Of a stretch of DNA of 64,000 nt, positions 6,478 to 41,712 are shown one piece after another (within the stretch, counting starts at the first letter, position 1; every line of letters starts with the position of its first letter). Origin of the DNA: an uncultured Desulfobacterales bacterium (GTDB lineage: Bacteria > Desulfobacterota > Dissulfuribacteria > Dissulfuribacterales > QOAL01). The stretch is taken from assembly GCA_964573615.1 (NCBI GenBank), contig CAZNKD010000065.1:5843-69842 (forward strand), given 5' to 3'. The position numbers were made by a program, and so were the translations under genes. Under the pieces are notes generated by a model. The model did not search any database. It was not told the origin of the DNA and worked only from the letters and a program-made list of their open reading frames with translations.

Positions 6478-7386
6478 ATGCCCCTTGACCATCTGAAGAA
6501 GAGAATAGACAAGGCCCTCAAAAAGGGCCAGGAAGGAAGCGCCATCCAGCCTGTCAGGCTCGAGAAGGACAGCACCTTCAAATTCCAGTGCCATCCAGGC
6601 GTCAGCTGTTTCACAAAGTGCTGCCGCAACATGAATATAATCCTCACGCCATACGACATCATCAGGCTGAAGCAGCGGCTGGGTCTTACGTCCGACCTCT
6701 TTCTGCGCCTCTATACAAAGCCAGAACTGCTCGGGATCACCGGGGTTCCTGTGGCCCGGCTGCTAATGATGGAGGAGCGGGGAGGAAAGTGCCCCTTTGT
6801 CACGGAAAAGGGGTGCCAGGTCTACAGCGACCGGCCTGTCTGCTGCCGCTACTATCCTATCGGCCTTGCAAGCCTCAGACAGCAGGAAAAGAGTGCAGGA
6901 GAAGAGGAGGAGTTCTTCTTCCTCATCAAGGAGGATCACTGCAAGGGCTTTGAGGAGCCGGTGGAGTGGACGGTGGAGTCCTGGCGTGAGGATCAGGAGT
7001 CGGACTTCTACGACCGGATGAACAGGGAGTGGATGGAGCTGCTGCTTAGAAAGCGCTCCTTTGGGGAGGAGACCGAGATGCCGGAGCGGGCAAAGGAGCT
7101 GTTCTACATGGTCTCCACCAACATGGAGCGGTTCCGCCAGTTCGTTTTCGGAAGCCGCTTCCTGGACACCTACATCGTAGATGGAAAGCTCCTGAGAAAG
7201 ATCCTCGAAGACGATGTGGAACTCATGCAGTTCGGCTTCGAGTACCTGAAGGTGGCGATCTTCGGGGCCGAATCCGACATCATGAAGCTCAAAGAGGATA
7301 TCCTGGATGCCACGGTGAAACAGATCATCAAACGGAGGAAGAAGAGGAGGCGCAGGCTCGAAAGGCTGGCTAAGGGGCGTAAATAG
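6478..7386 (+). CDS. YkgJ/UPF0153-family zinc/iron-chelating Cys-cluster protein with a basic C-terminal tail
   Basis: Motifs are FKFQCHPGVSCFTKCCRN and GKCPFVTEKGCQVYSDRPVCCRYYP. I place the start at the internal ATG 6478 (MPLDHLKK) because the 115 upstream codons do not look protein-like. Confidence 0.7.
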   Translation: MPLDHLKKRIDKALKKGQEGSAIQPVRLEKDSTFKFQCHPGVSCFTKCCRNMNIILTPYDIIRLKQRLGLTSDLFLRLYTKPELLGITGVPVARLLMMEERGGKCPFVTEKGCQVYSDRPVCCRYYPIGLASLRQQEKSAGEEEEFFFLIKEDHCKGFEEPVEWTVESWREDQESDFYDRMNREWMELLLRKRSFGEETEMPERAKELFYMVSTNMERFRQFVFGSRFLDTYIVDGKLLRKILEDDVELMQFGFEYLKVAIFGAESDIMKLKEDILDATVKQIIKRRKKRRRRLERLAKGRK

Positions 7387-19378: not shown

Positions 19379-21622
19379 ATGAAAACCCGCTATCCCACAC
19401 ATATAATCATTGCGGCCCTTGCCGTGTCGGCCCTGTTCCTTGCGTATACAGGCCAACCATACGGGAAGGCCCTGGCAGCACCTGCTGCCAACAAGCAGGA
19501 AGGAAGTGGTACAAAAAGCGGGGCCACCCTGCCTCCAGATGAGCTTGCATGGCTCAGCCTCAAGCCGGAACTCGAGGCATTCTGGCGCAACATGGAGGTG
19601 GAGCCCTACTCCACAGGCCAACACGTCTGGGGCCTCATCTACATGCTCAAGGACTTCATCAAGCGCTATCCGGACTCATCCAGGATCCCAGAGGCCTATT
19701 TCATCCTGGGTGAGGCTTACGGGGCTGCTGGTTACTGGCCAGAGGCCCTGGCCCACTGGAAGATAGTGACCAGGTATTTTCCAGACTCCCAGTGGACCAA
19801 CGATGCCCTGAATTCAATAGTCTCATATCTGGCAGTCCATGGAAATCAAAAGAAAATCAATGACTTTTATATGGAAGTAATGCGTCAGTTTCCTGACACC
19901 ATTGCAGCAAAGATCGTAAAGTGCCTCCTGGCCAAACAGGCCCTTATGGAGGGCAAGGAGGATCTGGCCAACAAGGCCATAGCCGAGATCGAGGCCGCCA
20001 ATCCCAATGCCGCAGCCCTGATGCCGGAGATCCTGGATCTGAAGGCCCGCCTGGCCCTAAGGCATGGCGACGCGAAAGGGGCGATATCCTACTGGCTCCA
20101 CTATCTGAACCTGATAAAGTCCCGCCAGGCCAGGGCCAAGACCCTCTTCACGATAGCAGAGACCTACAGGGAGATGGGACGAAAGCTTGAGGCCAGAAAA
20201 TACTACTCACTGATAAGGAGAGATTACAGCGGCTTTCCTGAGGCGCTATTTGCCAGATTTCGCATGCTCCAGATGGATGAGGAGGCAGCGAAGAAGCTGG
20301 CCCAGGTAACGGGCAAGGTGCCTGGCAGAAAGGATCTCACCAGGGCAGAGCTGCTCCTTGAAAAGATCGTCAAGGAGTTTCCAAGACACCCCCTTACAGA
20401 CGAGGTCATGAAGGAGCTCATCGAGACGGAACTGGAGGCCAAGGACTATCTCGAGGCCCTGATCGAGGCGGATCAGTTCATCAAAAGGAACGATCAGAGC
20501 CCATATCGCAAGCAGATCCTCGATATGGCCCTAACGGCCAGAGACGGCCTCCTCAATACAGACTATCCCGTTCCGTTTCTGGAGCGTGTCGTGAATCAGG
20601 GAAGGAGCTATCTGAGGTTCCCCCCGAGCAACCAGGTCCAGAAATACATCAGACAGGTGACACAGAAGTTCTGGCTCCGCCTAATAGACGGACTCATCGA
20701 TGAAGAGCGACCTGAAGAGGCACTTGCCTGGTACTGGGACTATCTGGATCTCTTCGACGGCAACCATCAGGCACTGAAGGAGGCCCTGCCTGTAGCAAGG
20801 CGTGCGGTCGTGGCCATGGACGAGATGCTCATCTCGAAGGATAGGCCCTTTAAGCTCGTGAGATACTACTATGCGCACAGGAAGGGGATAGACGATCTGA
20901 AGGTGGCCGAACACTACTGGTACCTGGGTAAGGCACTGGAGTCTCTCGGCTTCAGGCGCGCTGCAGCCAGATCATTCTTCAGGGCCTGGCAGCTTGAGCC
21001 CCCTGTTCAGGTCAGATGCCAGCTACTGCTGGACTGGGCGGCCACAACCCTCGAGATCGCAGATCCGGAGGAGGTCCAGAGCATCATAAGTCTCATGGAT
21101 GCCACCTGTCCCCAGGCGGCCATGGCCCCAGAGGCCATGCTCATCAAGGCCAAGGCGGCCATGGCCCAGCACGACTGGCAGGCGGCCTACAACATGGCAT
21201 CGAGCAGCCTGGAGATGGAAGAGAGCCTGGATGCGGCCCTGATGGCCATAGAGTCCCTTCTCAAGCTGGGGCAGTGGCAGCAGGCAAGGCTCCTGTTCAG
21301 ACGCCACAGCCCCCTCTTTTCGAATGAGCAGAGGCTCTCCATCCTGAGGAGCTGGGGGGATCAGGCCCTCATGCTCACGGAGGCGGCCGAGGCCCTGCGG
21401 GTCTACAAGGAGCTGATCTCCTTGGAGCAGGAGATGGAACAGCAGCCCCCCTCTGCCGATGTCTTCAGGCTGGCCCTGGCCGAGAGGATGCTGAAGGGGC
21501 CCAAGGCCGCAGGCGAGATCTTCCGGCAGCTTTCAAAGGAGGGGGAGAATCCGTGGAAGAATGCAGCCAAGGAGGAGATCCGCCTCGAACAGTTTCTTGC
21601 AAGCATCGAGGGGGTGATATGA
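19379..21622 (+). CDS. Secreted TPR-repeat protein
   Basis: The start is placed at MKTRYPTHIIIAALAVSALFLAYTG (signal peptide), because the longer ORF would overlap the sigma54 promoter. Repeated TPR-like helices run throughout. Confidence 0.7.
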   Translation: MKTRYPTHIIIAALAVSALFLAYTGQPYGKALAAPAANKQEGSGTKSGATLPPDELAWLSLKPELEAFWRNMEVEPYSTGQHVWGLIYMLKDFIKRYPDSSRIPEAYFILGEAYGAAGYWPEALAHWKIVTRYFPDSQWTNDALNSIVSYLAVHGNQKKINDFYMEVMRQFPDTIAAKIVKCLLAKQALMEGKEDLANKAIAEIEAANPNAAALMPEILDLKARLALRHGDAKGAISYWLHYLNLIKSRQARAKTLFTIAETYREMGRKLEARKYYSLIRRDYSGFPEALFARFRMLQMDEEAAKKLAQVTGKVPGRKDLTRAELLLEKIVKEFPRHPLTDEVMKELIETELEAKDYLEALIEADQFIKRNDQSPYRKQILDMALTARDGLLNTDYPVPFLERVVNQGRSYLRFPPSNQVQKYIRQVTQKFWLRLIDGLIDEERPEEALAWYWDYLDLFDGNHQALKEALPVARRAVVAMDEMLISKDRPFKLVRYYYAHRKGIDDLKVAEHYWYLGKALESLGFRRAAARSFFRAWQLEPPVQVRCQLLLDWAATTLEIADPEEVQSIISLMDATCPQAAMAPEAMLIKAKAAMAQHDWQAAYNMASSSLEMEESLDAALMAIESLLKLGQWQQARLLFRRHSPLFSNEQRLSILRSWGDQALMLTEAAEALRVYKELISLEQEMEQQPPSADVFRLALAERMLKGPKAAGEIFRQLSKEGENPWKNAAKEEIRLEQFLASIEGVI

Positions 21623-23196
21623 TCCCTGATCCCATTTGTCAGGAAAGGGGCCATGTGCTCGTTGCCGCAAGCGAGCTGAGACAGAGACTCAACCTCCAGA
21701 AAGAGCTGGAGGAGATGGGCCTTGAGGTGACAGCAGCCCCGGACCTCCACACCGCCCTCCAGATCGCCTCGAAAAACAGCTTCCTCCTCATCCTGATGGT
21801 CCACGATCCCGAGGGCATGGATGGTATAGAGTTTCTGAAGGAGATGAGCGAAACAGGTGGCATCAACCCTCCAGGATCGGTCGTACTCCTCTCTGAGGCG
21901 GCTCACATGGATGATGCAGTACAGGCTCTGGAGCTTGGGGCTGCGGATTTCAGGCTGAGGCCCTGGGAGGGCAAGGTGCTCGAGCTTCTGATCAAACGGG
22001 CCCTTTCAAACAGGCCCGCCCCTGCCCCAAAAAGCGATAAAGGGCAGGAGACAGGCCCGCCCAGGGATACTTCTTCCGACCAGACAGAAAAGCCAGGGCA
22101 GGAAGCCCCCTCTTCCGGGAGGAAGGAAGATGCCAGGGGCCCAAAGGCCATTGGTGAAGGAGTTGATAAAAAGGAGGATGAAGCCCTTGTCAGCCAGGGC
22201 CAGGAGAGCCGCTATCGCATCCTCACCAGGAGCAGCTCCATGGAAGAGGTGCTCAGCAAGGCCCGGATGGTGGCAAGGAGCAAGGCCCCTGTACTCATTC
22301 AGGGAGAAAGCGGCACAGGAAAGGAGCTCCTTGCGCGCTTCATCCACAGGCACAGCGACCGGAGTGCAGGCCCGTTTGTGGCCCTGAACTGCGCCGCCCT
22401 TCCAGAGACCCTTCTTGAAAGCGAGCTGTTTGGCCATGAAAAGGGGGCCTTTTCCGGTGCACTCTCCAGGAAGGCAGGAAAGTTCGAGCTGGCCCATGGT
22501 GGCACGATACTGCTCGATGAGATCACCGAGATGGCCCTTGCCCTTCAGGCCAAGCTCCTTCGGGTACTCCAGGAGGGGGAGGTGGACAGGCTTGGGGGCA
22601 CAGGGCCCATCAAGGTGGATGTCCGGGTGGTGGCCACCACGAACAGGGATGTCCTCAAGGCAGTGCGGGAAGGCAAATTCAGGGAGGATCTCTACTTTCG
22701 GCTGAACGTGATTCCCATGCGTCTTCCGCCACTGAGGGAGCGCAAGGGTGATGCCCTATACCTGGCGCAGGAGTTTCTGAAGGAGTTCTGCACCCTTTAC
22801 GGGAAAAATGGACTGGAATTTGCGTCCGATGTCATCGAGTTCATCGAGAGCTATTCATGGCCCGGCAACGTGCGGGAGCTCAGGAACATGATAGAGCGCG
22901 GGGTGCTGCTTGCCCAGAACAACTCCATAACCAGACAGATCCTGCTCGCGGAGCAGGAGCACGGGGCCGGAGGTGCTGAAAATTTTTCCGCATCGGGCCA
23001 AGCCGGACCAGCAGGAGCTGCCGCCCATGATCGGGAAGAGAGCTTCAATCTGAGTGACATGGAGAGAGAGATGGTGAAAAGGGCCCTTGCAAAGACGCAG
23101 GGCAACAGGACCCATGCAGCGAAACTCCTCGGGATAAGTGTCAGGACCTTGAGGAACAAGCTGTCCGAGTACAGAAAGATGGGTCTGGTGCTCTGA
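21619..23196 (+). CDS. sigma54-dependent transcriptional activator (FleQ/FlrA-like, degenerate receiver)
   Basis: The AAA+ core shows GESGTGKELLARFIH, ESELFGHEKGAFSGA (GAFTGA-type loop) and RVVATTN. A C-terminal Fis-type HTH is present (AAKLLGISVRTLRNKL). The ATG overlaps the upstream stop (ATGA). Confidence 0.9.
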   Translation: MIPDPICQERGHVLVAASELRQRLNLQKELEEMGLEVTAAPDLHTALQIASKNSFLLILMVHDPEGMDGIEFLKEMSETGGINPPGSVVLLSEAAHMDDAVQALELGAADFRLRPWEGKVLELLIKRALSNRPAPAPKSDKGQETGPPRDTSSDQTEKPGQEAPSSGRKEDARGPKAIGEGVDKKEDEALVSQGQESRYRILTRSSSMEEVLSKARMVARSKAPVLIQGESGTGKELLARFIHRHSDRSAGPFVALNCAALPETLLESELFGHEKGAFSGALSRKAGKFELAHGGTILLDEITEMALALQAKLLRVLQEGEVDRLGGTGPIKVDVRVVATTNRDVLKAVREGKFREDLYFRLNVIPMRLPPLRERKGDALYLAQEFLKEFCTLYGKNGLEFASDVIEFIESYSWPGNVRELRNMIERGVLLAQNNSITRQILLAEQEHGAGGAENFSASGQAGPAGAAAHDREESFNLSDMEREMVKRALAKTQGNRTHAAKLLGISVRTLRNKLSEYRKMGLVL

Positions 23197-23226
23197 TCGG
23201 TCCCTGGTATGAGAGGAGGAGAGAGC

Positions 23227-23676
23227 ATGATCAAGAGACTATTCGGATCAACGGTGGAGATCCTGGAAAAGGGCCTCAGTCTTCGGGCCAAGCGTCAGGC
23301 CGTGCTCGCATCAAATGTGGCCAATGCCGATACCCCGGGCTACAAGGCAAAGGATCTCGATTTCAAGAGATTGATGAAGAGATTCATGGAAAAGGAGCTG
23401 CAGATGAATGTGCACGGCAGGGCTGGGCAGAAGGCCGCTTCCGGCAGGCTGGAGCTCGCCGTGACAAACCCTGGCCACATGAGACCAGCCAGGGATGCGG
23501 AGATAGACGCCGGCATCATCGTCTCTGATGAGACAGGCATCCCCAACAACGTGGATCTCGACCTCGAGATGGCAAGACTCTCGGAGAACAGCATCCAGTA
23601 CCAGACGACCCTACAGCTCCTCATCAAGAAGTTTGAGGGTCTCAAAAATGCTGCAACCGAAGGAGGAAGGGCATAA
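23227..23676 (+). CDS. flgB: Flagellar basal-body rod protein FlgB
   Basis: The LASNVANADTPGYKAKDLDF motif is present. The SD GAGGAGGAG precedes the ATG at 23227. Confidence 0.9.
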   Translation: MIKRLFGSTVEILEKGLSLRAKRQAVLASNVANADTPGYKAKDLDFKRLMKRFMEKELQMNVHGRAGQKAASGRLELAVTNPGHMRPARDAEIDAGIIVSDETGIPNNVDLDLEMARLSENSIQYQTTLQLLIKKFEGLKNAATEGGRA

Positions 23677-29670: not shown

Positions 29671-30123
29671 ATGGCCTTTCGTTTCAGACTAGAGACACTC
29701 TTAAGGATCAAAAGGCGCCTGGAAGAGGCGGCCCAGATGGAGCTTTCCGGGCTGAGTGCCAAAAAGGCCGGCTTGGAAAAAAAGCAAAGGGAACTGCTTG
29801 ATGAGCTGAACCTCCTTAGGGGGCAACTCAAGGAAGGGCTCAAACAGGGACTGAACGCATCTGAATATCAGCTCTGCCAGCAGGCCCTGTCCTTCAAGAC
29901 GAATGAGCTCGACAGATTGAGGCAGGATATATCGAAGATCGAGCTTGAGATAATAAAGGCCAGACACAAGCTCACCGGAATCTACAGGGAGCGAAAGCTG
30001 GCAGAGAACCTCAGACAGAGGCAGCTCGATGAGTACAAGAGGCAGGAGGCCAGGGCCGAGCAGAATGAACTCGATGATCTGATGGGCCTGCGTCTTCCGA
30101 ACAGTTCCCATCAGACCGGATAA
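29671..30123 (+). CDS. fliJ: Flagellar export chaperone FliJ
   Basis: 150 aa all-helical coiled coil starting MAFRFRLETLLRIKRR. It lies immediately after fliI. Confidence 0.8.
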   Translation: MAFRFRLETLLRIKRRLEEAAQMELSGLSAKKAGLEKKQRELLDELNLLRGQLKEGLKQGLNASEYQLCQQALSFKTNELDRLRQDISKIELEIIKARHKLTGIYRERKLAENLRQRQLDEYKRQEARAEQNELDDLMGLRLPNSSHQTG

Positions 30124-30149
30124 GGAATCAAAAGAGGCGATAAGTAGCG

Positions 30150-30743
30150 ATGAAACAGGATACCTTCTCAAGGCTGTTGGGTGTCATAACAGCGATAGCC
30201 ATTCTAAAGCTTGCGTTGACAGGGCTGTTTCTGTTGCCTGTCTTCAGTGGACCGGACAGTGTCGAGGCTGCATCCGATGCGAGCCAAAAAGGGCAGCCCG
30301 CCGGCCAAAAGAGCCCCTCCCGCAACAGGTTCGAGATGGCTTCCAGCCAGTGCAGCCAGGAATTTCTGGACCTGATAAATGCAAGGGCCCATGAACTCGA
30401 CGAGAAGGAAAAGGCGCTCATGGCCAAACAGGAGGATCTCAAACTCCTCGAAGAAGAGATAGACAAGAAGATAAAGCTGCTAAAACGGCTACAGCGCGAC
30501 CTGGAAGGGCCCATCAAGAAACGGGCCGCTGATGAAGAGGCGAGGCTACAGCACCTGGCAGGCGTCTATGCATCCATGGAGCCTGCAAGGGCTGCAGCCC
30601 TGCTGAACAAGCTCGACGATGAGACGGTTACCAAGCTCTTTTCCATTATGAAAAGCAAGAAGGTGGCCTTCATACTGGCCAACATGGAGCCTGAAAAGGC
30701 TGCAAGGATCAGCAGCTATCTATACCGGAATCCAGGGATGTAG
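30150..30743 (+). CDS. MgtE-N-domain flagellar protein (FlbB/MotE-like)
   Basis: It has an N-terminal TM, a coiled coil, and a C-terminal AALLNKLDDETVTKLFSIMKSKKVAFILANMEPEKAARIS (MgtE intracellular N-domain pattern). Confidence 0.65.
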   Translation: MKQDTFSRLLGVITAIAILKLALTGLFLLPVFSGPDSVEAASDASQKGQPAGQKSPSRNRFEMASSQCSQEFLDLINARAHELDEKEKALMAKQEDLKLLEEEIDKKIKLLKRLQRDLEGPIKKRAADEEARLQHLAGVYASMEPARAAALLNKLDDETVTKLFSIMKSKKVAFILANMEPEKAARISSYLYRNPGM

Positions 30744-30759
30744 CCACAACCGCCTGATT

Positions 30760-33738
30760 TCAGTCCTCGATTCCATAGGCCCCCTTCCACCCTACCGGGA
30801 GCCTCACCAGGGCCTTTGCCTTGTTTCTGAAGAGCAGGTAGCCCTTTCTTTGGCCGAACATGAATAGATCCCGGGTGAGCCGCACATCATCCTTGCAGTA
30901 CTCCAGCACCTTTCTGATCTCACCGGCCTTCCACCACTTGAGGGCCATGAGACCATCTGCGCTCTTGCGGGCCCCAAGGGTTGCAGAACAGAGCGCATCC
31001 AGGGAGAGACGATAGCCCAAGCGCTCTTTAACGGCATCAAGGATGTCCAGGGTTGGCAGCGACCACAGATCCATGGTCGTGTAGGCGGAGAGCACCTTGT
31101 AGTCGAAGCGCCTTATGTTGAAACCGACCACGAGGTCCATCCTCGAAAGCAGCCTGAAAAAGGCCTCTAGCTGCCCTTCCCTGAAACAGACGAAGGATCT
31201 GGTAGCAGAATCGTATACCACGGCACAGCTGACGCCCATTGCCTCTGCCCTGTGCCAGCCTCCAACCTCCTGGGCCGAACGCTGGGTCTCCAGGTCGAAG
31301 ACGCAGAATCGCCTCACCCTTGAAGGCACGGCAGACGAGGGCTGGCCCACATGGCGAGGCAAACTGCCACCGGCACGGCCGGGGCTATCTGTCAAGACCG
31401 GGGTGGGAGATGGCCGGGCACTGCCCTGGGAGGCCTCTTTCCAGCCATATCTCAGCCCCTTCAGGATGAACAGGGCTGCCTCCTTGTCTATCGGGCGATT
31501 CCCGGAGCCGCACTTTGGGGAGTGGACGCACGAGGGACAGCCGAGCTCACAACCGCATGTCCTTATGGTCTCATGGGTCGATGTCAGGAGCTCAGGGGCC
31601 TTTTCAAATGCCTGCCTGGAGAGCCCCGCCCCGCCAGATATCCCGTCATAGACGAAGACCGCGGCCCCACCAACCTGAGGGTGGAATGTGATGGAGATGC
31701 CGCCGAGATCGTTCCTGTCACAGAGCACGAGAAGCGGCATGATCCCGATCACTGCATGCTCCATTGCATGGATGCCACCCATGAAGTGGAGCTGCCTGGC
31801 CTCTGTAGCCCTTCTGAGTCCATCCGGGATCTCGAACCACAGCCCCATGGTTTCGAAGATCAGGGGCGGAAGGTCGAGGCTCACCCTGCTTATCAGCCTC
31901 TGGCCCCTCACAAGCCGCATGTCATAGCCGGTGACCTCCTCGGTCACCCGCAGTCTTCCGGTAAAGACCCTGAACCTGCCCGTGTCTATCGTATCCTGGA
32001 TCTCGAGTATCTCGGTCGTCTTTGATGACCGGACCCTGGTGTAGTAGTTCACCTTTCTGGGCCTGGCGAAGACCCTCCTCGAATCTTCATCGATCCTGGT
32101 CACCACATAGGTTGTCCCCCTGTGGAGATAGACCGCCCCTGGATGGGTCTCCTTGTAGAGCCTTATGGCATCTATAGTGCCGATCTGGGGCCCATCCGGA
32201 TCGTGGACGATCTGAAAACTCTTCCCGCTCCCCCTCAAATCGACTTCTCTCTGGGGATAGCGTCTGAGGCTTACGAGCCCCCCGCCTTCCTCCATCTCGA
32301 AGAGCCTGCTCTCGGCAAGGAGCTCCTGTGCCAGCCCCGGGGCACTCGGGTCGAAGGAGGCAAGCTCATCAGGATCGATGGGCCGCTCTGATGCAGCACA
32401 GACGAGATGGGCCGATGCCACCACCTCGTTTCCGGGATTCAGCACCGCCTCTTCCGCAGGGCGCTCCACAAGCTCCTGGGGGTGGTTGAGAAAATAACGG
32501 TCAAGGGCGTCTTCCCCGGCTATCATTATCACCGCAGACTCCCTCAGGGCGCGCCCGACCCGGCCGCTTCTCTGCCTGAGTGACATCAGAGTGCCCGGAT
32601 ATCCCACCAGTATGCAGAGATCCAGCTCTCCGATATCGATCCCAAGCTCGAGGGCGCTGGTACTGATCACTGCCAGGGTCTTTCCGGAGGCGAGATCGGC
32701 CTCTATGGCCCGCCTCTCCTCTGGCAGATAGCCTGCACGATAGGCTGATATCTTGTCTGCCAGGCGTCCTGCACGCTGACTTGCCCAGAGGCTTACGAGC
32801 TCGGTGAGCTTTCTGCTCTGGGTATAGACGATGGTCCTGAGCCCCCTGTGTATGGCTGCAAGAAGGAGCTGCACTGCAGTGGCAGGCGCCCCTGCCTCCT
32901 CCGGCTCCATCAGCACCAGATGGCGTTCGGCCTGTGGAGCCCCGCTGCAGGTGATCTCCTCCACATGCCTGCCTATAAGCTGCCTGGCCAGGGTGCCCGG
33001 GTTGCCGATGGTTGCCGAGCAGAGCACGAATACCGGATCAGAGCCATAGTAGGCGCACATGCGGCGAAGGCGTCTGAAGACCCAGGCCATGTTGGAGCCC
33101 AGGATGCCCCGATAGGTATGTACCTCATCTATCACCACCATGGACAGGCCCTGCCAGAAGGAACTCCACTTGTCATGGTATGGGAGCAGAGACAGATGGA
33201 GCATCTCAGGATTCGTAAGGAGGCAATTTGGAGGCTGCTGCCTGATGCGTCCCCTTTTCCATGCAGAGGTGTCCCCGTCATAGATCGCTGCACTAGGCCT
33301 CTTGGCCCCTTTCAGCAGGCGGGAGATCCGCTCAAGCCCCTTAAGCTGGTCCTGGGCCAGTGCCTTCAGGGGAAAGAGATACAGAGCGTGGCTTTCGGGG
33401 TGGGCCAGGAAGCGCTCCAGCATCGGCAGATTGTAGATGAGGGATTTTCCGCTTGAGGTCGGGGTCGCAACCACAACGCTCTTGCCACGCCGAATCAGGT
33501 CTATGGCCTTGGCCTGATGGGAGTAGAGGGCATCTATACCCAGACGGTCGAGCAGATCTGTTACTTCTTTTGGAAGGGGCGGATCGGGAAGGCCGGGCAC
33601 AGCACCTCGTGGGCCCTGCCTGTGATAATGGACCACAAGCCTGCCCAGGGATGGAGAAGCCCTCAGGGCATCCAGATACTCCTTTACCGAGGGCCGTTTG
33701 TCCTCTATTTCGGCATCAAGGGTCTTGAGGGAGGCCAT
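30760..33738 (-). CDS. DEAD/DEAH-box helicase with DUF1998/MZB zinc domain (MrfA/YprA-like) fused to a C-terminal DEDD-type RNase H-fold exonuclease (MrfB/YprB-like)
   Basis: 992 aa. Helicase motif I is ATPTSSGKS and motif II is VIDEVH. A 4-Cys cluster reads CGCELGCPSCVHSPKC. After a Pro/Ser linker the last 182 aa carry FDLET, GFNIRRFD and YCKDD exonuclease motifs. Confidence 0.85.
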   Translation of the reverse strand: MASLKTLDAEIEDKRPSVKEYLDALRASPSLGRLVVHYHRQGPRGAVPGLPDPPLPKEVTDLLDRLGIDALYSHQAKAIDLIRRGKSVVVATPTSSGKSLIYNLPMLERFLAHPESHALYLFPLKALAQDQLKGLERISRLLKGAKRPSAAIYDGDTSAWKRGRIRQQPPNCLLTNPEMLHLSLLPYHDKWSSFWQGLSMVVIDEVHTYRGILGSNMAWVFRRLRRMCAYYGSDPVFVLCSATIGNPGTLARQLIGRHVEEITCSGAPQAERHLVLMEPEEAGAPATAVQLLLAAIHRGLRTIVYTQSRKLTELVSLWASQRAGRLADKISAYRAGYLPEERRAIEADLASGKTLAVISTSALELGIDIGELDLCILVGYPGTLMSLRQRSGRVGRALRESAVIMIAGEDALDRYFLNHPQELVERPAEEAVLNPGNEVVASAHLVCAASERPIDPDELASFDPSAPGLAQELLAESRLFEMEEGGGLVSLRRYPQREVDLRGSGKSFQIVHDPDGPQIGTIDAIRLYKETHPGAVYLHRGTTYVVTRIDEDSRRVFARPRKVNYYTRVRSSKTTEILEIQDTIDTGRFRVFTGRLRVTEEVTGYDMRLVRGQRLISRVSLDLPPLIFETMGLWFEIPDGLRRATEARQLHFMGGIHAMEHAVIGIMPLLVLCDRNDLGGISITFHPQVGGAAVFVYDGISGGAGLSRQAFEKAPELLTSTHETIRTCGCELGCPSCVHSPKCGSGNRPIDKEAALFILKGLRYGWKEASQGSARPSPTPVLTDSPGRAGGSLPRHVGQPSSAVPSRVRRFCVFDLETQRSAQEVGGWHRAEAMGVSCAVVYDSATRSFVCFREGQLEAFFRLLSRMDLVVGFNIRRFDYKVLSAYTTMDLWSLPTLDILDAVKERLGYRLSLDALCSATLGARKSADGLMALKWWKAGEIRKVLEYCKDDVRLTRDLFMFGQRKGYLLFRNKAKALVRLPVGWKGAYGIED

Positions 33739-34279: not shown

Positions 34280-35185
34280 ATGAAGAGCTCTCAGGTCATA
34301 AAAAAGGGGCCCGCTCCCCTCAAGCCCATTGATATAAATGCAGAGAAGAGGAAGCGGGAGATCATAGCAAAGCTCGATGCCATTCCCCCTTTGCCTGCCG
34401 CGGCACAGGAGGTACTAAGCATCATATCGGGGGAGCCTGCCAACATAAAGAGGCTGGAGCAGGTGATACTGCACGACCCCGCCCTCACCTCCCAGCTGCT
34501 GAAGGTGGCAAACAGCGCGGCATACAGCCCGGCATCCAGGATAGATACCGTCCAGAGGGCCATAGTATTCCTCGGTTTCTCAGAGGTGAGGAGCATTGCA
34601 CTCAGCCTCTGCATAGGAAACCTCTTCAAGCAGAAAAAGGGCAGGCACAGCATCAACAGACAGCGTTTCTGGGAGCACTCCATAGCCACAGCCATGATCT
34701 CGCGGATCCTGGCCCTGGAGGTGGGAATGGAAGAGACAGATCTCATCTTCACCTGCGGCCTGCTCCATGACCTGGGCCATCTGGTGCTCGACCTGTGCTT
34801 TCCAGAGGAATGGGAAGAGATAATCCGGTTCGTATGGGAGCATGACTGCTCACTCCTTGCAGCAGAGAGGCATTTCGGCTATCCCCACAATCTCATAGGC
34901 ATGTGGCTCGCCCGTACCTGGGGCCTCCCAGAGGTCTATGCCAGGACCATCGCAGGCCACCATCTGCCTGTAGGTCACCCCAAGGAGAGCTTTGAGGGAC
35001 ACCTGGTACAACTTGCAGACCACCTGAGCCATGAACTCGAACTGGGCCTGTTCGCCCCGCCCAAATTCAACAAAGAGAGTGTAGCCAGCTATCTGGGCCT
35101 TGGCCCCAGCCGCCTCGAACTACTCGAGGAGCACCTGATCCACATAGGTGAACTGGCAGATGCCATGACGGCAGGCTTCATGTAG
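34280..35185 (+). CDS. HDOD domain signalling protein
   Basis: 301 aa with PPLPAAAQEVLSII, a DPALTSQLLKVANSAAY block and the LLHDLGHLVL motif. Confidence 0.88.
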   Translation: MKSSQVIKKGPAPLKPIDINAEKRKREIIAKLDAIPPLPAAAQEVLSIISGEPANIKRLEQVILHDPALTSQLLKVANSAAYSPASRIDTVQRAIVFLGFSEVRSIALSLCIGNLFKQKKGRHSINRQRFWEHSIATAMISRILALEVGMEETDLIFTCGLLHDLGHLVLDLCFPEEWEEIIRFVWEHDCSLLAAERHFGYPHNLIGMWLARTWGLPEVYARTIAGHHLPVGHPKESFEGHLVQLADHLSHELELGLFAPPKFNKESVASYLGLGPSRLELLEEHLIHIGELADAMTAGFM

Positions 35186-35290: not shown

Positions 35291-36670
35291 ATGGTGCAGG
35301 ATTCTTTCAAAAAAGGCCTCCGGGATGCCCCCTGGGCCCTGCTCTGCCCTTTTTGGGCCCTCTTCTGCCTTGCTCTCCTCGCTACACCCTTGGGGACCTG
35401 GGCGGCTCAAGGCCCAAAGGCGCTGAAACGGGCCGAACGGGTCACACGGCTCGGCTCCGGGCAGATAGAGATGTGCCTTTCATGCCACTTCGAGGAGCTA
35501 GACAAGGCCCACAGCCGTGAAGCCGCAGGATGCTGGTCCTGTCACCTTGGAAATCCCCTTGCAGGCACGCCAGAGCTCGCCCACAAGGGCATGGTCCTGA
35601 ATCCGGGAGAGCTCCAAGTTGTGGAAAAGACCTGCGGAAGGAGCGGCTGCCACGCCACAGATGCCCGGGACATCAAAAAGACCCTGATGGCCACCAACAG
35701 GGGGATCATCTCCACCCTCAGATTCTACTGGGGAGAGGAGGATGACAATGAATCGAAACTGACAGTGGAGGAGCTGATAAGGACGGGAAAGAACTCCCCT
35801 GCCCTCGACTATTTCAGAAAGCTGTGCGGTACATGTCACCTCTGGCTTGAAAGACACCGCTATCCCGGCTTCCTCGGCGAAAAGGGTGGCGGATGCAGCG
35901 CCTGCCACCTTAAAGATAGAGAGCAGGGGACAAAGGGGGCACCCCATCCCCGTGTCACAAAGGCCATCGGGCTTGAAAACTGCGTGCGTTGCCACAACAG
36001 GAGTGGCCGCATCGGCCTTTCATATCAGGGCAAGTATGAATCAGAGGGGTATGGGACCCCGTTTGATGGGGCCGATTTCAGTGAAAGTCAGTTGCCGGAC
36101 GGCAGATTCATCTGGAAGGGCCTTCCCCCCGACGTCCATTTCACCAAGGGGCTCGTCTGCATAGACTGTCACACCAGAAAAGAGGCCATGGGAGATGGAA
36201 GCTCACACGCACACCTTGAAGAGCAGGTGGAGATCAAATGCTCCACATGCCATACAGGGCAGAAGGAGCTTTCGAGGCTTGTTGCCGGCATGGACGATGA
36301 CAAATCACGGCTCCCGAAGATAACCGGGCTCAAAAGGGAGATTGACGGAGCGATCTTTCAAGAGGGCAAGCTGAACAAGAAGCGCTACAGGCTCTCTCCG
36401 CCAGACGATAGGTGCATGAGCCCGGTACATGAACGGCTCTCATGCCAGGCATGTCACTCAAGATGGGTCCCCCAGTGCTATGGCTGCCATGTGAGGATGG
36501 ATGGGTCAAGGGAGCAGCTGGACAAGCTGAAGGGTGAGGCCACCCCGGGACTATGGCAGGAGTATAGATCCTTCATAAGGCTTGAGAGCCCTGTCCTTGG
36601 GGTCAAGATGGCCCACACCATCAGGGATGTGGCCCAGAAGGAGGAGATCGTGATCCTGGTTCCCGGCTGA
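35291..36670 (+). CDS. Periplasmic multiheme cytochrome c, as delimited by a TGA (see finding: possibly continues through it)
   Basis: It has a signal peptide. Nine CxxCH motifs are present (CLSCH, CWSCH, CGTCH, CSACH, CVRCH, CIDCH, CSTCH, CQACH, CYGCH), plus one CX4CH (CGRSGCH). Confidence 0.9.
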   Translation: MVQDSFKKGLRDAPWALLCPFWALFCLALLATPLGTWAAQGPKALKRAERVTRLGSGQIEMCLSCHFEELDKAHSREAAGCWSCHLGNPLAGTPELAHKGMVLNPGELQVVEKTCGRSGCHATDARDIKKTLMATNRGIISTLRFYWGEEDDNESKLTVEELIRTGKNSPALDYFRKLCGTCHLWLERHRYPGFLGEKGGGCSACHLKDREQGTKGAPHPRVTKAIGLENCVRCHNRSGRIGLSYQGKYESEGYGTPFDGADFSESQLPDGRFIWKGLPPDVHFTKGLVCIDCHTRKEAMGDGSSHAHLEEQVEIKCSTCHTGQKELSRLVAGMDDDKSRLPKITGLKREIDGAIFQEGKLNKKRYRLSPPDDRCMSPVHERLSCQACHSRWVPQCYGCHVRMDGSREQLDKLKGEATPGLWQEYRSFIRLESPVLGVKMAHTIRDVAQKEEIVILVPG

Positions 36671-36676
36671 CAGGAC

Positions 36677-36708
36677 TTCATCTCCTTTCTGGATGAAAGG
36701 GGAAGATG
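36677..36708 (+). other. SECIS-like stem-loop immediately 3' of the in-frame TGA
   Basis: Hand-folded. Positions 681-689 pair with 695-703, giving 9 bp including one G-U. The apical loop is UGGAU at 36690-36694. Two to three more pairs follow a 1x1 mismatch. The loop lies 19 nt after the UGA. Confidence 0.45.
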
Positions 36709-36742
36709 GCGAAAGGACTTCAAGAGGCTCACCGCCTCCTCC

Positions 36743-37147
36743 ATGGATCCGCACACCACGTCCAAAGAACCGCGTCCTTGCACAGAGTGCCACATGAACA
36801 CGAGGGCACTGGGGCTTGGGGCCGGGACATTGAGCATCGACGGCGATGCCTGGATCTTCTCCCCAATCCTTGCCGAAGACAAGGGGATTTTTGGCCATGG
36901 ACAGAGGCTGGATCAGTTCGTGACCCCTGAGGGCCGGCCGACAGTCCACATGTCAAGGCCGTGGCTCCGTCCATTCGACTCCGGTGAGCTTCTGAAGATC
37001 GTAAATGTGGGCCCGTGCCTGAAATGCCACAGGGACATGGAAGACCCGGTAATGAAGGGTTGGAAGAAGGGCTCACCGCCTACTCCATGCAGGTTCAGCC
37101 CGTTCAGGCAGTGGCCCCAAAAGATCATCCTCAACCCTCTTCCTTGA
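36743..37147 (+). CDS. Cytochrome c segment (2 CxxCH), most likely the C-terminal continuation of the preceding cytochrome
   Basis: CTECH and CLKCH motifs are present. It is in the same frame as 35291..36670. There is no SD and no signal peptide of its own. The 24 codons upstream, back to the TGA, are open. Confidence 0.6.
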   Translation: MDPHTTSKEPRPCTECHMNTRALGLGAGTLSIDGDAWIFSPILAEDKGIFGHGQRLDQFVTPEGRPTVHMSRPWLRPFDSGELLKIVNVGPCLKCHRDMEDPVMKGWKKGSPPTPCRFSPFRQWPQKIILNPLP

Positions 37148-37226: not shown

Positions 37227-38210
37227 ATGCCCGGAGCCGAGCTACACAATATCAATGTGCAGAACAAGCTGACCCTGACCCAGCAGGTGACCAATACCGC
37301 AAGGGTTGCCCTCAAAAACCTCATTCAAAAGGGCAAGCTCCCTTGGCCGAGATATTACGGTGAAGAGTTCTGGTCGGTGGCAAGGAAGCTCGGTTTCTTC
37401 TCCGTTGCAGCCCATGCAGAGCCGGAGCCCTTGATGCCGGAGGAGCTCGAAAACTTCCTGGAAGAGACCAACAACATCCTGGGCGGGGTGCAGGATACCC
37501 TTGAAAACCTGGTATCCGGCACGAGAAACCGTGTCGCCGACATGATGGGCTCCATAGATGCCCTTGAAGACAAGGACCTGGAGAACCGCTTCATAGAGGA
37601 GATCCAGGAGCTGCGCCGAAAGAACGAGGAGCTTGAGAAACACTCGGAAGATGCAGAGAAGAAGATAAGGGAGCAGACCAAGCTCATAGAGCAGCTGAAG
37701 AACCAGGTTCGGATAGATCCGCTCACAGGCCTCTATAACAGGCGTGCAATGGAGCCAGACCTCAAAAAGGAGATGGTTCGGGCCCGCAGATACAAGTTCC
37801 CCCTCTCCCTTGTCATGTGTGACATAGACCACTTCAAGCAGATCAATGATACCTACGGCCACAAGATCGGTGACCGTGTACTTCAAAAGCTCGCCAAGAG
37901 CCTGCAAGAATCCATCCGTACATCGGACAACATCTACCGATATGGCGGAGAGGAGTTCCTCATCCTGCTGCCCCACACAGATGCAGAACATGCGCTCATC
38001 TTTGCCGAAAGGCTGCGGGAGACCATCATGGGCGTGCGGTTCGTATCCAAAAAGCACGGGCTCAACCTTGGCGTCACCCTCTCCTTCGGCGTGACCGAGA
38101 TGAAGCCCACCGACTCCATCTCCTCTTTCATAGCAAGGAGCGACAAGGCCCTCTATCTTGCAAAGCTAAATGGCAGAAACAGGGTAGAGCTTATAACAGA
38201 AGAGGTATAG
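37227..38210 (+). CDS. Diguanylate cyclase (GGDEF domain) with N-terminal coiled coil
   Basis: DPLTGLYNRR, an active-site RYGGEEFLILL and the CDIDHFKQIND block are present. Confidence 0.9.
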   Translation: MPGAELHNINVQNKLTLTQQVTNTARVALKNLIQKGKLPWPRYYGEEFWSVARKLGFFSVAAHAEPEPLMPEELENFLEETNNILGGVQDTLENLVSGTRNRVADMMGSIDALEDKDLENRFIEEIQELRRKNEELEKHSEDAEKKIREQTKLIEQLKNQVRIDPLTGLYNRRAMEPDLKKEMVRARRYKFPLSLVMCDIDHFKQINDTYGHKIGDRVLQKLAKSLQESIRTSDNIYRYGGEEFLILLPHTDAEHALIFAERLRETIMGVRFVSKKHGLNLGVTLSFGVTEMKPTDSISSFIARSDKALYLAKLNGRNRVELITEEV

Positions 38211-39025: not shown

Positions 39026-40525
39026 CTATCTGGAGCGGTTGGGAAAGAGGAGGCTGAAGGCCATGCAACTGAGCAGGCATGTCAGGAAACCTGGCACCAT
39101 CTCGTAGAGATCGAATATCCCGCCCTCAAGCTGCCGCCAAAGGATGACGGTAAGGCTGCCCGCCAGAATGCCTGCCAGGGCCCCTGGTCCGCTCATCTGT
39201 TTCCAGTATAGGCTAAGCACTATCACTGGTCCGAACCCGGCCCCAAAACCTGCCCAGGCATAGCCCACCATGTCGAGCACCCTGCTTTCGGGATCGGCGG
39301 CAAAGAGGGCCGCTGCCGCTGCCACCAGAATCACGGTCAGCCTGCCTGCCCACACCAGCTCCCTCTGAGAGGCAGCAGGCCTGAAAAGGCGCCTGTAGAA
39401 ATCCTCTGTCAGGGCAGATGATGAAACGAGCAGTTGGGAATCGGCAGTGCTCATTATGGCTGCCAGGATGCCTGCCAGGCAGATGCCTGCAGGCACCGGA
39501 TGGAGCAGGGCCTTTACCAGCATTATGAAGACCTTTTCAGAGTCTCCAAGCGGCTTGGTGAAATAGGCGGACCCTGCAAGACCGGCTGCGATGGCGGCTG
39601 CCATGCCAATGAGAGCCCAAGACGTGGCGATACGCCTTGCAGAGACGGCCTGTTCGGGATCGGAGAGGGCCATGAACCGGGCAAGGATATGTGGTTGGCC
39701 AAAATAGCCAAGCCCCCAGGCAGCCAGGGATATGGCGGATATTATGGAAAGATCCTGGTCAGCCACGGAGGCCAGGGCCGCCATCAACCGCTGAGATGCC
39801 GCCAACCCGTTACTATCTGCCGTAACGGACAGGGCGGAGATGGCCATGGCAGGCACTATGAGCAGAGCGGCCAGCATCAAGATGGCCTGAAAGGCGTCTG
39901 TCCACGACACTGCCAGAAAGCCCCCCAGAAACGTGTAGGCCATGATGGCCCCACACCCTATCAGCACGGCATCCATGTATGGGAGTCCAAAGACCTCGGT
40001 GAACAGCTTTCCACCTGCAACCAGGCCGGAGCTGGTATAGATGGTAAAGAAAAAGAGGATGAACAGGGCAGAGACCGCCCTCAGGGCAGCCCCGGAAGCA
40101 GAGGCCTTTCCAGTTGGCGGGCTGAATCTGCGCTCCAGATATTCGGGAATGGTAAGCGAGTCACCATATCTCTCGCTCTTCATCCTGAGGCCCTGGGCAA
40201 CGATACGCCAGTTCAGCCAGGTGCCTGCAAGGAGCCCGGCTGCAAGCCAGAGGGCCTTGAGGCCAGACAGATAGGCAAGGCCGGGCAGCCCCAGTAGCAG
40301 CCAGCCACTCATGTCCGACGCACCTGCCGAAAGGGCTGCCACCAGGGGCCCCAGCCTCCTTCCACCAAGGATATAGTCGCCGATATTCTCGGTCCTTCTC
40401 CACGCAACCAGGCCGATGGCCAGGACTATGGCCATATATGCCAGGAAGGTTGCACCCACCGCAGGATCTGCCCTGTGCAAAAGGGATTCGCCCTGCAGCA
40501 CTATGTCTGCACCTGTATCAGCCAT
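39026..40525 (-). CDS. putP: Sodium:solute symporter, PutP-like
   Basis: 499 aa. The block DYILGGRRLGPLVAALSAGASDMSGWLLLGLPG closely resembles the PutP signature region as I remember it. The substrate is not proven. Confidence 0.85.
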   Translation of the reverse strand: MADTGADIVLQGESLLHRADPAVGATFLAYMAIVLAIGLVAWRRTENIGDYILGGRRLGPLVAALSAGASDMSGWLLLGLPGLAYLSGLKALWLAAGLLAGTWLNWRIVAQGLRMKSERYGDSLTIPEYLERRFSPPTGKASASGAALRAVSALFILFFFTIYTSSGLVAGGKLFTEVFGLPYMDAVLIGCGAIMAYTFLGGFLAVSWTDAFQAILMLAALLIVPAMAISALSVTADSNGLAASQRLMAALASVADQDLSIISAISLAAWGLGYFGQPHILARFMALSDPEQAVSARRIATSWALIGMAAAIAAGLAGSAYFTKPLGDSEKVFIMLVKALLHPVPAGICLAGILAAIMSTADSQLLVSSSALTEDFYRRLFRPAASQRELVWAGRLTVILVAAAAALFAADPESRVLDMVGYAWAGFGAGFGPVIVLSLYWKQMSGPGALAGILAGSLTVILWRQLEGGIFDLYEMVPGFLTCLLSCMAFSLLFPNRSR

Positions 40526-40533
40526 GCATGGGA

Positions 40534-41349
40534 TTATATCCCAATTGACGCCGGAGAAAACCGGTTTTGCCAGGTATCTGGCATCTCTTGGCTTGCAAGC
40601 TGCCTGGCAAGGGCCATGAGCTCACCATCCTTGGTGTTGACGATGGCGGCATCCAGTCCTGAAATGGCGAGCATGGACAGGACCTGACAGTGGAGCCTGC
40701 TCCTTGAGTGCCTGGAAAGACCAAGAGAGATGTTGCTGAGCCCGACCACGGTCCTGACCTTCTCCTGCCTCAGCTGCGATATGATGTGCAGGGCATCCAT
40801 GAAAAGGGTTATGTCGGGCATGGCCCTGGCCAGGAGCGATGCGGCCACATCACTCCTTGGCCGCAAGATCGGGTCGATCATGATGCGATCCAGGGGAAAT
40901 CCCCGCTTCTCTGCCAGCTCCAGCACACCTTCTGCCATGATCACCATCTCCTCCAGGCAGGAGGGCAGAAAGCCTTCACGCACCAGCATGATCACAACAC
41001 CGGCCCCAAAGCACTCGGCTGCAGCAAGCATGCTCTCAAGCCGGGCCTCATCGGCGGTGGCCCCGTTTATCCATGCGCCCTCCCCTGCCTCCTTGAGCCC
41101 CGGAGCCAGGGCCTCGGCAGGGGCGGTGATGAACAAGGGTATTTCGGCAGCCGACCTGATCACCGATATGGCCCACGGCAGCCAATTCTCGGATGCCCTA
41201 CGGCAGACCCCGAGGTTCACCTCCAGGGCATCTGCCCCAGCCTCTATCTGCTGCTCGACGACAGAGACAAAGGCCTTTTCATCCCTCTCCTCTACAGCAC
41301 GGAATATGGCTGGATTCAAGATGTTACACCTTTCCCCCACAATGATCAT
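40534..41349 (-). CDS. Pterin-binding (DHPS-like) methyltetrahydrofolate methyltransferase domain protein
   Basis: 271 aa. IIVGERCNI...GADALEVNLG is the N-terminal pattern of MetH/AcsE/MtrH-type pterin-binding barrels. It contains no other domain. Confidence 0.75.
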   Translation of the reverse strand: MIIVGERCNILNPAIFRAVEERDEKAFVSVVEQQIEAGADALEVNLGVCRRASENWLPWAISVIRSAAEIPLFITAPAEALAPGLKEAGEGAWINGATADEARLESMLAAAECFGAGVVIMLVREGFLPSCLEEMVIMAEGVLELAEKRGFPLDRIMIDPILRPRSDVAASLLARAMPDITLFMDALHIISQLRQEKVRTVVGLSNISLGLSRHSRSRLHCQVLSMLAISGLDAAIVNTKDGELMALARQLASQEMPDTWQNRFSPASIGI

Positions 41350-41511
41350 GATGCACTACTCCTTTTTCATGTTCTTGACACCAGCCAGATGATGTTTCAG
41401 GGGAAAACAGGGAGGAAGGAACTGAAACCTAGAGATAGCAGGAGCCGCTCCTGCCAAACCACAGCCCTGTGTGATCGGGCCTTTAGCCACGAGGCCCATC
41501 GATCACCCTCC

Positions 41512-41666
41512 CCTTCAGGCCGGTCTCCCGGCTCGCGGATCAACCTACCGGCTGCGCCTTCCCATCACGCCTCTGGCGTGACAGTGGCACCCTGTGCAGC
41601 CTTCGTCCCCGCTCACGGTTGCGGGCCAGCGCCGGACTCTCACCGGACTTCCCGTTCACCTGAAGG
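41512..41666 (-). promoter_or_regulatory. Cobalamin (B12) riboswitch aptamer
   Basis: The minus strand reads CCTTCAGGTGAACGGGAAGTCCGGTGAGAGTCCGGCGCTGGCCCGCAACCGTGA...GCCACTG...GGGAAGGC...GAGCCGGGAGACCGGCCTGAAGG. This covers the conserved core, the B12 box and a closing P1 (CCTTCAGG/CCTGAAGG). It lies 160 nt upstream of the pterin-binding gene. Confidence 0.88.
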
Positions 41667-41712
41667 TGTCCATTCGATCCTATCGTGTATCTTTTGAGGG
41701 AATTCTTACAGC

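Follow-up and report, generated by a model that had tools for sequence, protein, structure and literature searches.

A multiheme cytochrome c gene interrupted by an in-frame TGA codon lies in the 64,000-nucleotide stretch of DNA analysed here (the window; contig CAZNKD010000065.1 from an uncultured Desulfobacterales bacterium), and our results suggest, with a probability of about 0.9, that this UGA encodes selenocysteine (Sec) in a single twelve-heme periplasmic cytochrome. Two open reading frames (ORFs), 35291..36670 (459 amino acids, aa) and 36743..37147 (134 aa), share one reading frame, their starts being offset by 1452 nucleotides (484 x 3), and the sole TGA between them is that at 36668-36670. 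The 24 codons leading from this TGA to the downstream ATG translate as QDFISFLDERGRWRKDFKRLTASS. The read-through product would have 618 aa, with the TGA at position 460 (..ILVPG-U-QDF..), and would contain 11 CxxCH motifs and one CX4CH motif (CGRSGCH, residue 115), ten of them before the TGA (residues 62, 81, 115, 179, 202, 231, 290, 317, 385 and 396) and two after it (residues 497 and 576). The bases 5' of the ATG at 36743, caccgcctcctcc, include no Shine-Dalgarno-like purine run, and the peptide of the downstream ORF, which begins MDPHTTSKEPRPC, has no hydrophobic leader. An earlier description made from the letters of the window alone (hereafter the sequence-only reading) had reported the same-frame ORFs split by a lone TGA with 24 open codons after it, the 618-aa product with its heme motifs and Sec at 460, and a downstream ORF devoid of Shine-Dalgarno sequence and signal peptide; the coordinates, the translation and the motif list bear out all of this. 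The own terminator of the cytochrome gene is also a TGA, as are those of other genes of the window, showing that UGA is a normal stop in this organism and that its recoding would be site-specific. At the N-terminus, a possible signal cleavage site follows TWA-A (judged by eye).

A search of 5.8 billion proteins with the concatenated sequence, from which the 120 best matches were aligned, shows the UGA column to be an invariant Cys (PG-C-QD) in 108 of these closest homologues, all of them contiguous proteins of ~550-640 aa, while the remaining 12 stop exactly one residue before the column (...VPG). At the nucleotide level, a scan of one genome per species provided 80 loci, in which the codon at this column is TGA in 43, TGC or TGT in 37, and never TAA or TAG. 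The frame remains open for 134-180 codons past the TGA in all 43 Sec-type genes, the window gene included; the protein encoded there is conserved (QDF[IV]SFLDE.G) and carries two more CxxCH motifs in 42 of the 43. The full complement of 11 CxxCH and one CX4CH motifs was recovered in 41/43 Sec-type and 37/37 Cys-type genes. Homologues that seemed to end at this position are thus interrupted by a TGA and continue in a conserved open frame, and the contiguous ones have Cys at the column, as the sequence-only reading had proposed to check. A pseudogene, produced by a nonsense mutation or by an assembly error in the contig, might be suspected in a window obtained from a metagenome, as one in-frame stop in an intact gene resembles a recent nonsense mutation. 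Nevertheless, the identical TGA is found in an independent Joint Genome Institute (JGI) contig (L001) and in 43 species genomes at 45-57% protein identity, a divergence that excludes one contaminant, the downstream frame is intact and conserved in every TGA locus, and the stop is always TGA, so that we regard this explanation as having a negligible probability.

The genes with TGA are carried by the isolate Thermosulfurimonas dismutans S95 (L049), by Thermodesulfatator and Dissulfuribacterales metagenome-assembled genomes (MAGs), and by a Seep-SRB2 MAG, and the Cys-type genomes belong to the Desulfobulbales (Desulfocapsa, Desulfobulbus, Desulfurivibrionaceae, and the cable bacteria Candidatus Electronema). 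Neighbour-joining groups the Sec forms in one large clade, within which two Cys forms (L012 and L039) are nested. Both of these (L012:7113 and L039:7315) have TGT at the column, and L012 keeps a degenerate stem of the selenocysteine insertion sequence (SECIS), TTCCTTCCTGGATACAGGCGG. The nesting of these Cys forms in the Sec clade, together with the residual hairpin sequence of L012, points to recent Sec-to-Cys reversions, as described for MccSep, a Sec-containing cytochrome to which we return below.

Current annotations treat such loci as two genes, in which the cytochrome would end at the TGA and the downstream 134-158 residues would be re-initiated at the ATG at 36743 or at another codon, to associate afterwards with the large subunit. 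This is how gene callers and RefSeq annotate them: the T. dismutans gene (NZ_LWLG01000001.1; TGA at ~361,477, locus position 7177) is represented in RefSeq by a truncated 415-aa "hypothetical protein" (WP_153303720.1), JGI calls a downstream gene of 117 aa, and an ATG is indeed present 24 codons past the TGA in most Sec-type genes. However, the downstream part would need periplasmic heme attachment for its two CxxCH motifs and has no signal peptide, nor does its ORF have a Shine-Dalgarno sequence; the 24 codons from TGA to ATG encode a conserved peptide that can be aligned residue for residue to the contiguous Cys-type homologues; the break always falls exactly on the codon of the invariant Cys; and one Sec-type gene (L063) has no ATG until 127 codons downstream. 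Two separately translated genes therefore seem very improbable. The Met at +24, considered as a re-initiation codon, was ruled out because it follows the clade and not the TGA, with two Cys-type loci carrying it, probably the pair nested in the Sec clade. Across the 80 loci, residues 482 and 485 (36734-36745) are Met482/Ile485 in the Cys-type and Val482/Met485 in the Sec-type genes, a reciprocal shift of Met between two positions three residues apart, just before the invariant His488, which tracks the clade; Met485 of the Sec-type genes is the ATG taken by gene callers as the start of the downstream ORF. Regarding other database names, the T. dismutans gene appears in GenBank as a truncated 405-aa "cytochrome c family protein" (OAQ21864.1), and two full-length Cys-type orthologues (P0022 and P0047) are misnamed "amino acid ABC transporter substrate-binding protein".

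Downstream of the UGA, a hairpin of 9 pairs, including one G-U, is closed by a UGGAU loop and leaves a UGA-to-loop spacing of 19 nt (Table 1). The published model of bacterial SECIS elements (bSECIS) has an apical loop of 3-9 nt, an upper stem of 4-16 bp, and a G in the first two loop positions (PMC13188914), with 16-37 nt between UGA and loop and a minimum free energy (MFE) of at most -7.5 kcal/mol (PMC13188914). The window hairpin agrees with all four criteria of this model (5-nt loop with G-G at positions 2-3, 9-bp stem, 19-nt spacing, and MFE of -11.5 kcal/mol), and it is the strongest under the strict bSECIS test. When 43 Sec-type sequences (UGA plus 45 nt) were aligned, gap-free, the 5-bp core of the hairpin was paired in 92.6% of cells and the full 9-bp stem in 76%; at one core pair, a UA to CG double change occurs in 17 sequences, and 0 of 500 shuffles reached the observed values. 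In contrast, the same structure imposed on 36 Cys-type sequences gave 34.6% paired cells, that is, no signal, and a strict contiguous-stem version of the bSECIS test was passed by 21/46 Sec-type versus 0/37 Cys-type genes. Therefore, the hairpin, loop and spacing that the sequence-only reading had located, and the SECIS geometry it had attributed to them, are recovered by folding and by the published criteria, and the element covaries across the Sec-type genes.

Table 1. Coordinates and basis of the features of the cytochrome locus in the window (interpretations as proposed in the text).
Feature	Position	Strand	Basis
Predicted complete selenoprotein gene, ExtM-like dodecaheme cytochrome c (618 codons plus terminator)	35291..37147	+	frame and ORFs, NCBIfam ExtM match, contiguous homologues
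N-terminal export signal or membrane anchor, residues 1-39, hydrophobic core WALLCPFWALFCLALLA	35291..35407	+	translation
Span of the twelve heme-c attachment motifs	35474..37030	+	motif list
TGC codon of Cys375, outside any heme motif	36413..36415	+	invariant in the PG[C/U]QD subfamily
UGA probably read as Sec460, motif VPG-U-QDF	36668..36670	+	homologue column, genome loci
Putative bacterial SECIS hairpin, stem 36681-36689/36695-36703, loop UGGAU 36690-36694	36681..36703	+	folding, bSECIS criteria, covariation
C-terminal 158 residues with hemes 11 and 12, invariant His488 and conserved Cys600	36671..37144	+	made only if the UGA is decoded
True terminator TGA	37145..37147	+	ORF, translation

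Some observations weigh against Sec decoding. Only about half of the Sec-type genes pass the strict contiguous-stem version of the bSECIS test, and five or six of them, T. dismutans included, use a different hairpin a few bases downstream. The folding energy of the single sequence is unexceptional (z = 0.55 against shuffles of the 71-nt segment), and the case for the hairpin therefore rests on comparison and covariation. In the 64-kb window, a tRNA search found none, and no tblastn match was obtained with SelA, SelB, or SelD of E. coli. These last results, together with the shortness of the hairpin in many relatives, could also fit a UGA recoded to a residue other than Sec (Cys or Trp, by near-cognate suppression), where the hairpin would only stimulate read-through. 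Nevertheless, alternation of UGA with Cys codons where Cys is otherwise invariant is accepted as the hallmark of Sec, and the hairpin shows the bSECIS spacing with G-G at loop positions 2-3. In addition, T. dismutans, a carrier of the Sec-type cytochrome gene, is reported to have a Sec-type MccSep homologue (PMC13510729), which implies Sec machinery in this species, and the selenium of the Geobacter orthologue of MccSep has been shown by mass spectrometry (PMC13510729). We thus consider recoding to another residue improbable, and the Sec-containing multiheme cytochrome put forward by the sequence-only reading is supported by homologues, open frame and hairpin alike.

Two further observations concern the Sec machinery and other potential selenoproteins. 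When all retrieved loci were searched with the same three E. coli proteins, the one match was a weak tblastn match in L019 (L019:8244-8927, minus strand) to the first 218 residues of SelB (26% identity), corresponding to the GTPase domain; it lies ~5 kb from the Sec-type cytochrome gene and could be SelB or another translational GTPase. Among the same-frame ORF pairs split by a TGA in the window, no second selenoprotein gene was found; the true protein pairs among them are adjacent genes only, such as a sigma-54 regulator and FlgB.

The best NCBIfam match of the 618-aa protein is ExtM (NF040943; E 1.3e-75, 255 bits), over its full length, and the relatives cover positions 13-586 of the 599 of this profile. 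The 255 bits do not reach the equivalog cut-off of 800 bits, and on this profile evidence the window protein is remotely homologous to the 12-heme ExtM without being an ExtM equivalog. ExtM (GSU2935) is a 12-heme, 68-kDa cytochrome encoded in the extHIJKLMNOPQS cluster of Geobacter (PMC5877670). A true ExtM (P0198; 826 bits against the same cut-off) has PG-C-QT at the Sec column, so that the conserved reactive Cys is a feature of ExtM itself. The window protein also has weak partial matches to ExtN and other families, while ExtKL, the Otr-type octaheme family (TIGR04315), and the GSU2204-family (NF041027) gave no NCBIfam match at E <= 0.01. The cable-bacterial "ExtM homologues" noted previously (PMC11976967) are probably the Cys-type Candidatus Electronema loci found here. 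As an aside on these models, NF040968 "FeS_ExtO" (416 positions), which is named after the ExtO Rieske subunit, matches the cytochrome segment ~215-345 with scores near those of the ExtN model (415 positions), and what it models is apparently an ExtN-like cytochrome and not a 14-kDa Rieske protein.

A wider profile search among 1.84 billion cluster representatives retrieved 1,801 relatives, 419 of them below E 1e-30. In the best 150 representatives, the UGA column is Met in 97 (PGM[IV][ML]T[IL]D), Cys in 40, and His in one, and it is an invariant Met in all 93 full-length Met-type paralogues. Two further representatives end in ...PG, and their DNA displays a TGA followed by an open conserved frame with two heme motifs and a local hairpin. 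Of the two, L082 represents another subfamily (PG-U-QV) and L083 an additional PG-U-QD locus; both have a hairpin of their own, and more than one lineage thus shows Sec recoding at this column. The L082 gene (L082:1707-3854; JGI Ga0071347_1004714) has a His at column 375, a hairpin loop GGAU, and a conserved continuation of 165 codons. Elsewhere in the protein, Mets 133 and 300 are invariant and exchange only with His across the superfamily; the superfamily therefore probably uses Met as an axial heme ligand. The 80 close loci share 12 heme motifs, seven invariant His outside the motifs (74, 98, 219, 283, 308, 380, and 488) and the two Mets, and exactly three invariant Cys/Sec positions (375, 460, and 600). 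Column 375 is an invariant Cys in the PG[C/U]QD subfamily; ExtM proper and the majority of the remaining Cys-type subfamilies have a His there. Cys375 may pair with Sec460 or serve as a second heme-ligating thiolate.

An AlphaFold2 model was made of the closest contiguous Cys homologue, P0003 (mean predicted local distance difference test score 79, no hemes). It has an N-terminal helix at 9-35, and Cys452, at the Sec column, is located in the turn of a beta-hairpin (strands 444-450 and 454-459) of a beta-rich domain. A sequence search of the PDB gave nothing related (best E 0.31), and Foldseek with this model gave no match in the PDB at E <= 0.001. Such a Foldseek outcome is common when loop-rich multiheme proteins are modelled without their hemes.

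From these substitution patterns, we consider it about an even chance that Sec460 is heme-proximal, as a distal ligand or as an adjacent nucleophile. A more specific proposal, which we advance tentatively, is direct Se-Fe ligation, where Sec460 would be the distal axial ligand of a c-heme, giving a natural His/selenolate cytochrome c heme. The evolutionary route would then be a replacement of Met by Cys and of Cys by Sec at one ligand position, a succession that is conceivable but doubtful. Equally speculative is the idea that this heme, alone or with a second one ligated by Cys375, could form the catalytic centre of a periplasmic sulfur/selenium oxidoreductase; if true, such an enzyme would be widespread in sulfur-disproportionating and sulfate-reducing Desulfobacterota. 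Three points are unfavourable to these proposals: heme proximity is deduced from substitution patterns only, with no related solved structure; Gly, Val, or Tyr occupies the UGA column in 4 of the best 150 representatives; and the cytochrome gene has no sulfur-metabolism neighbours in the window.

Alternatively, Sec could be real and remote from any heme, forming a selenenyl-sulfide with Cys375 or Cys600 as a thiol/selenol switch in a protein that is otherwise an electron wire. The three invariant Cys/Sec outside the heme motifs would suit such a pair, many selenoproteins use U...C redox pairs (PMC13188914), and the HDOD/GGDEF flanks described below could fit a sensory role. However, the Met of all 93 full-length Met-type paralogues cannot form such a pair, L082 combines Sec460 with His instead of Cys at column 375, and there are nine invariant His/Met ligands for 12 hemes. 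A remote switch thus appears rather unlikely.

Separately from the question of the ligand, many Met-type members have an N-terminal extension of ~320 aa, as seen in P0151 and in ~40 other representatives of 860-970 aa. The extension of P0151, the only one scanned, matches cytochrome b (ExtP / b6-like). These Met-type fusions may be quinol-oxidising modules, and the P0151-type fusion fits a quinol-linked electron-transfer origin of the superfamily followed by a later catalytic conversion.

Considering all the evidence together, the best explanation, and a very probable one, is a single exported ExtM-like dodecaheme cytochrome in which codon 460 would be decoded as Sec through the hairpin. The hairpin, 11-33 nt downstream of the UGA, would recruit SelB carrying Sec-tRNA(Sec). 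The resulting Sec460 would take the place of a Cys invariant both in ExtM proper and among the orthologues of Desulfobulbales and cable bacteria, a Cys which itself would occupy the column of the invariant Met of the largest superfamily branch. Located at the tip of a beta-hairpin (P-G-U), residue 460 could reach the distal face of one heme, where the selenolate might ligate the iron (His/Sec heme) or act as an adjacent catalytic nucleophile, possibly with the invariant Cys375, and the remaining hemes would feed electrons to this site. The chemistry might be the reduction or oxidation of S-S or S-Se compounds (e.g., polysulfide, thiosulfate, or selenite), as the taxa carrying the gene and the sulfur-carrier genes adjoining relatives would suggest. 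Organisms with the gene live as sulfur reducers, disproportionators, or sulfide oxidisers. In Geobacter, ExtM is directly downstream of the Sec polysulfide reductase MccSep (PMC13510729), and the ext cluster also encodes a rhodanese-like ExtH (PMC5877670). Similarly, a rhodanese gene and a TPR gene are directly upstream of the Sec-type gene in L082, resembling the ExtH arrangement of Geobacter; a TusA/DsrE gene is near that of L083; and a true ExtM in another locus (L087) is flanked by TusA, a faint DsrE-like match, and a Rieske protein.

In the window, the cytochrome gene looks monocistronic, between an HDOD/HD gene (34280-35185, plus strand) and a gene for a GGDEF diguanylate cyclase (37227-38210, plus strand). 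These HDOD/HD and GGDEF flanks recur in 11-12 related loci, mostly Sec-type, and other loci are flanked by response-regulator/HD and chemoreceptor-like genes (named from sequence, not by family search), so a sensory or regulatory link of the cytochrome to cyclic di-GMP signalling genes may exist. The Cys-type genes are found between housekeeping genes such as NAD synthetase and histidinol dehydrogenase (named from sequence, not by family search), and housekeeping genes adjoin the cytochrome gene in most relatives. A conserved-operon analysis of the 80 loci detected no universal neighbour or operon partner, and a promoter and terminator scan gave nothing above the shuffled expectation. Rfam contains no family for the hairpin, and its sensitive mode on 36600-36800 gave chance-level matches only.

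Other features of the window are apart from the cytochrome gene. The sole Rfam gathering-mode match is a cobalamin riboswitch (RF00174, 93.8 bits) at 41501-41678 on the minus strand, upstream of a minus-strand pterin-binding-domain gene (40534-41349) and a sodium:solute symporter (39026-40525), which suggests that this pair represents B12-regulated uptake or methyl-transfer genes. A flagellar region includes a sigma-54-type response regulator (21328-23196, plus strand) followed in frame by FlgB (~23200-23670, plus strand; both named from sequence), and FliJ with a protein showing weak MgtE_N/FliG_M matches (29671-30743, plus strand). The minus strand at 30760-33738 encodes a DEAD-box/MrfA-type helicase of 991 aa whose C-terminal part is an RNase H-like domain.

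Full-text literature searches retrieved no paper describing Sec in ExtM-like cytochromes, and the selenoprotein catalogue of May 2026, which covers 119 prokaryotic families, includes ExtKL, the GSU2204-family CXXCH proteins, and the Otr-type octaheme proteins, with nothing ExtM-like (PMC13188914). Sec in multiheme cytochromes was biochemically demonstrated only in 2026, for MccSep/ExtKL (PMC13510729); the ExtM-like family would therefore be a second cytochrome scaffold with Sec, unrelated to the first and much larger. Its Sec form is present in at least 45 genomes and metagenome lineages and its Cys form in hundreds, the Cys/Sec carriers including cable bacteria, Desulfocapsa, Desulfobulbus, and Geobacter (as ExtM). 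Provided that the proposed decoding of the UGA holds, current gene calls for the Sec-type cytochromes are short by ~150 residues and two hemes. Moreover, a conserved reactive Cys/Sec is present in ExtM, a protein long regarded as an electron-transfer cytochrome, and the location of its gene next to that of MccSep suggests that the whole ext cluster is geared to sulfur/selenium chemistry. The Met/Cys/Sec series at one position would constitute a natural experiment in the tuning of a c-heme by an axial, or near-axial, chalcogen, a question that is directly testable in T. dismutans, which is culturable.

Among known systems, the closest parallel at the level of gene organization is MccSep/ExtKL (GSU2937-2936; NF040886), a five-heme polysulfide reductase whose selenium was shown by mass spectrometry in Geobacter, with Cys239 ligating heme 2 and Sec325 as the nucleophile (PMC13510729). 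As in the window gene, two ORFs are split by a UGA with a SECIS-like hairpin downstream, and a Gly precedes the Sec, which lies in a loop of the beta-rich C-terminal part (D-G-U-P in MccSep, P-G-U-Q in the window protein). In both cases, Sec-type and Cys-type forms coexist, with Cys forms nested among Sec forms, and an invariant extra Cys is present (C239, the heme 2 ligand, in MccSep; C375 in the window protein). The two families occur in the same phyla, and some organisms (T. dismutans) have both. The mushroom fold of MccSep consists of a helical cap with the five hemes and an Ig-like stem bearing the Sec. Nevertheless, MccSep is from another protein family without detectable sequence match to the window protein, it has 5 hemes in ~430 aa against 12 hemes in 618 aa, and its Sec is not a heme ligand, while the Sec column of the window protein is Met, Cys, or His in paralogues. 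Membership of the window protein in ExtKL/MccSep was ruled out from the lack of a family-model match, the heme number (12 versus 5), and the motif (VPGUQDF versus IPDGUPTPNR). Thus, the ExtK/ExtL precedent named in the sequence-only reading is a real Sec cytochrome, ExtKL being MccSep (PMC13510729), but the window protein is not a member of it.

With ExtM, the window protein shares homology over the full length, twelve heme motifs, a similar length, and, through P0198, a Cys at the Sec column. In contrast, column 375 is His in ExtM and Cys in the window protein, the window gene is outside an ext operon, with neighbours that are not ExtKL, ExtN, or Rieske/cytochrome b, and ExtM is not listed as a selenoprotein family. 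The Otr-type octaheme (TIGR04315) and GSU2204-family (NF041027) proteins are also CXXCH proteins with one Sec (PMC13188914), and their models miss the window protein.

Regarding the proposed ligand, His/Cys-ligated catalytic c-hemes occur in the sulfur enzymes TsdA and SoxAX (cited in PMC13510729). The window protein resembles them in having a Cys, here probably Sec, at a distal-ligand-like position and in belonging to a sulfur-living organism, and differs from them in that no homology is shown and that its ligation is deduced from sequence. DsrJ is likewise among the His/Cys-ligated c-heme sulfur proteins, and none of TsdA, SoxAX, and DsrJ is known to use Sec as a ligand. A Sec-ligated heme has nonetheless been described in a P450 (ncCYP subfamily M; bioRxiv 10.1101/2024.12.22.630014), where a UGA-encoded Sec replaces the heme-ligating Cys and which was found, as with the window gene, through ORFs truncated at the ligand codon. 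A His/Sec c-heme, if true, would therefore be new for cytochromes c and not the first natural selenolate heme, the P450 having heme b, the P450 fold, and a proximal Sec, whereas the site in the window protein would be distal and on a covalently bound c-heme.

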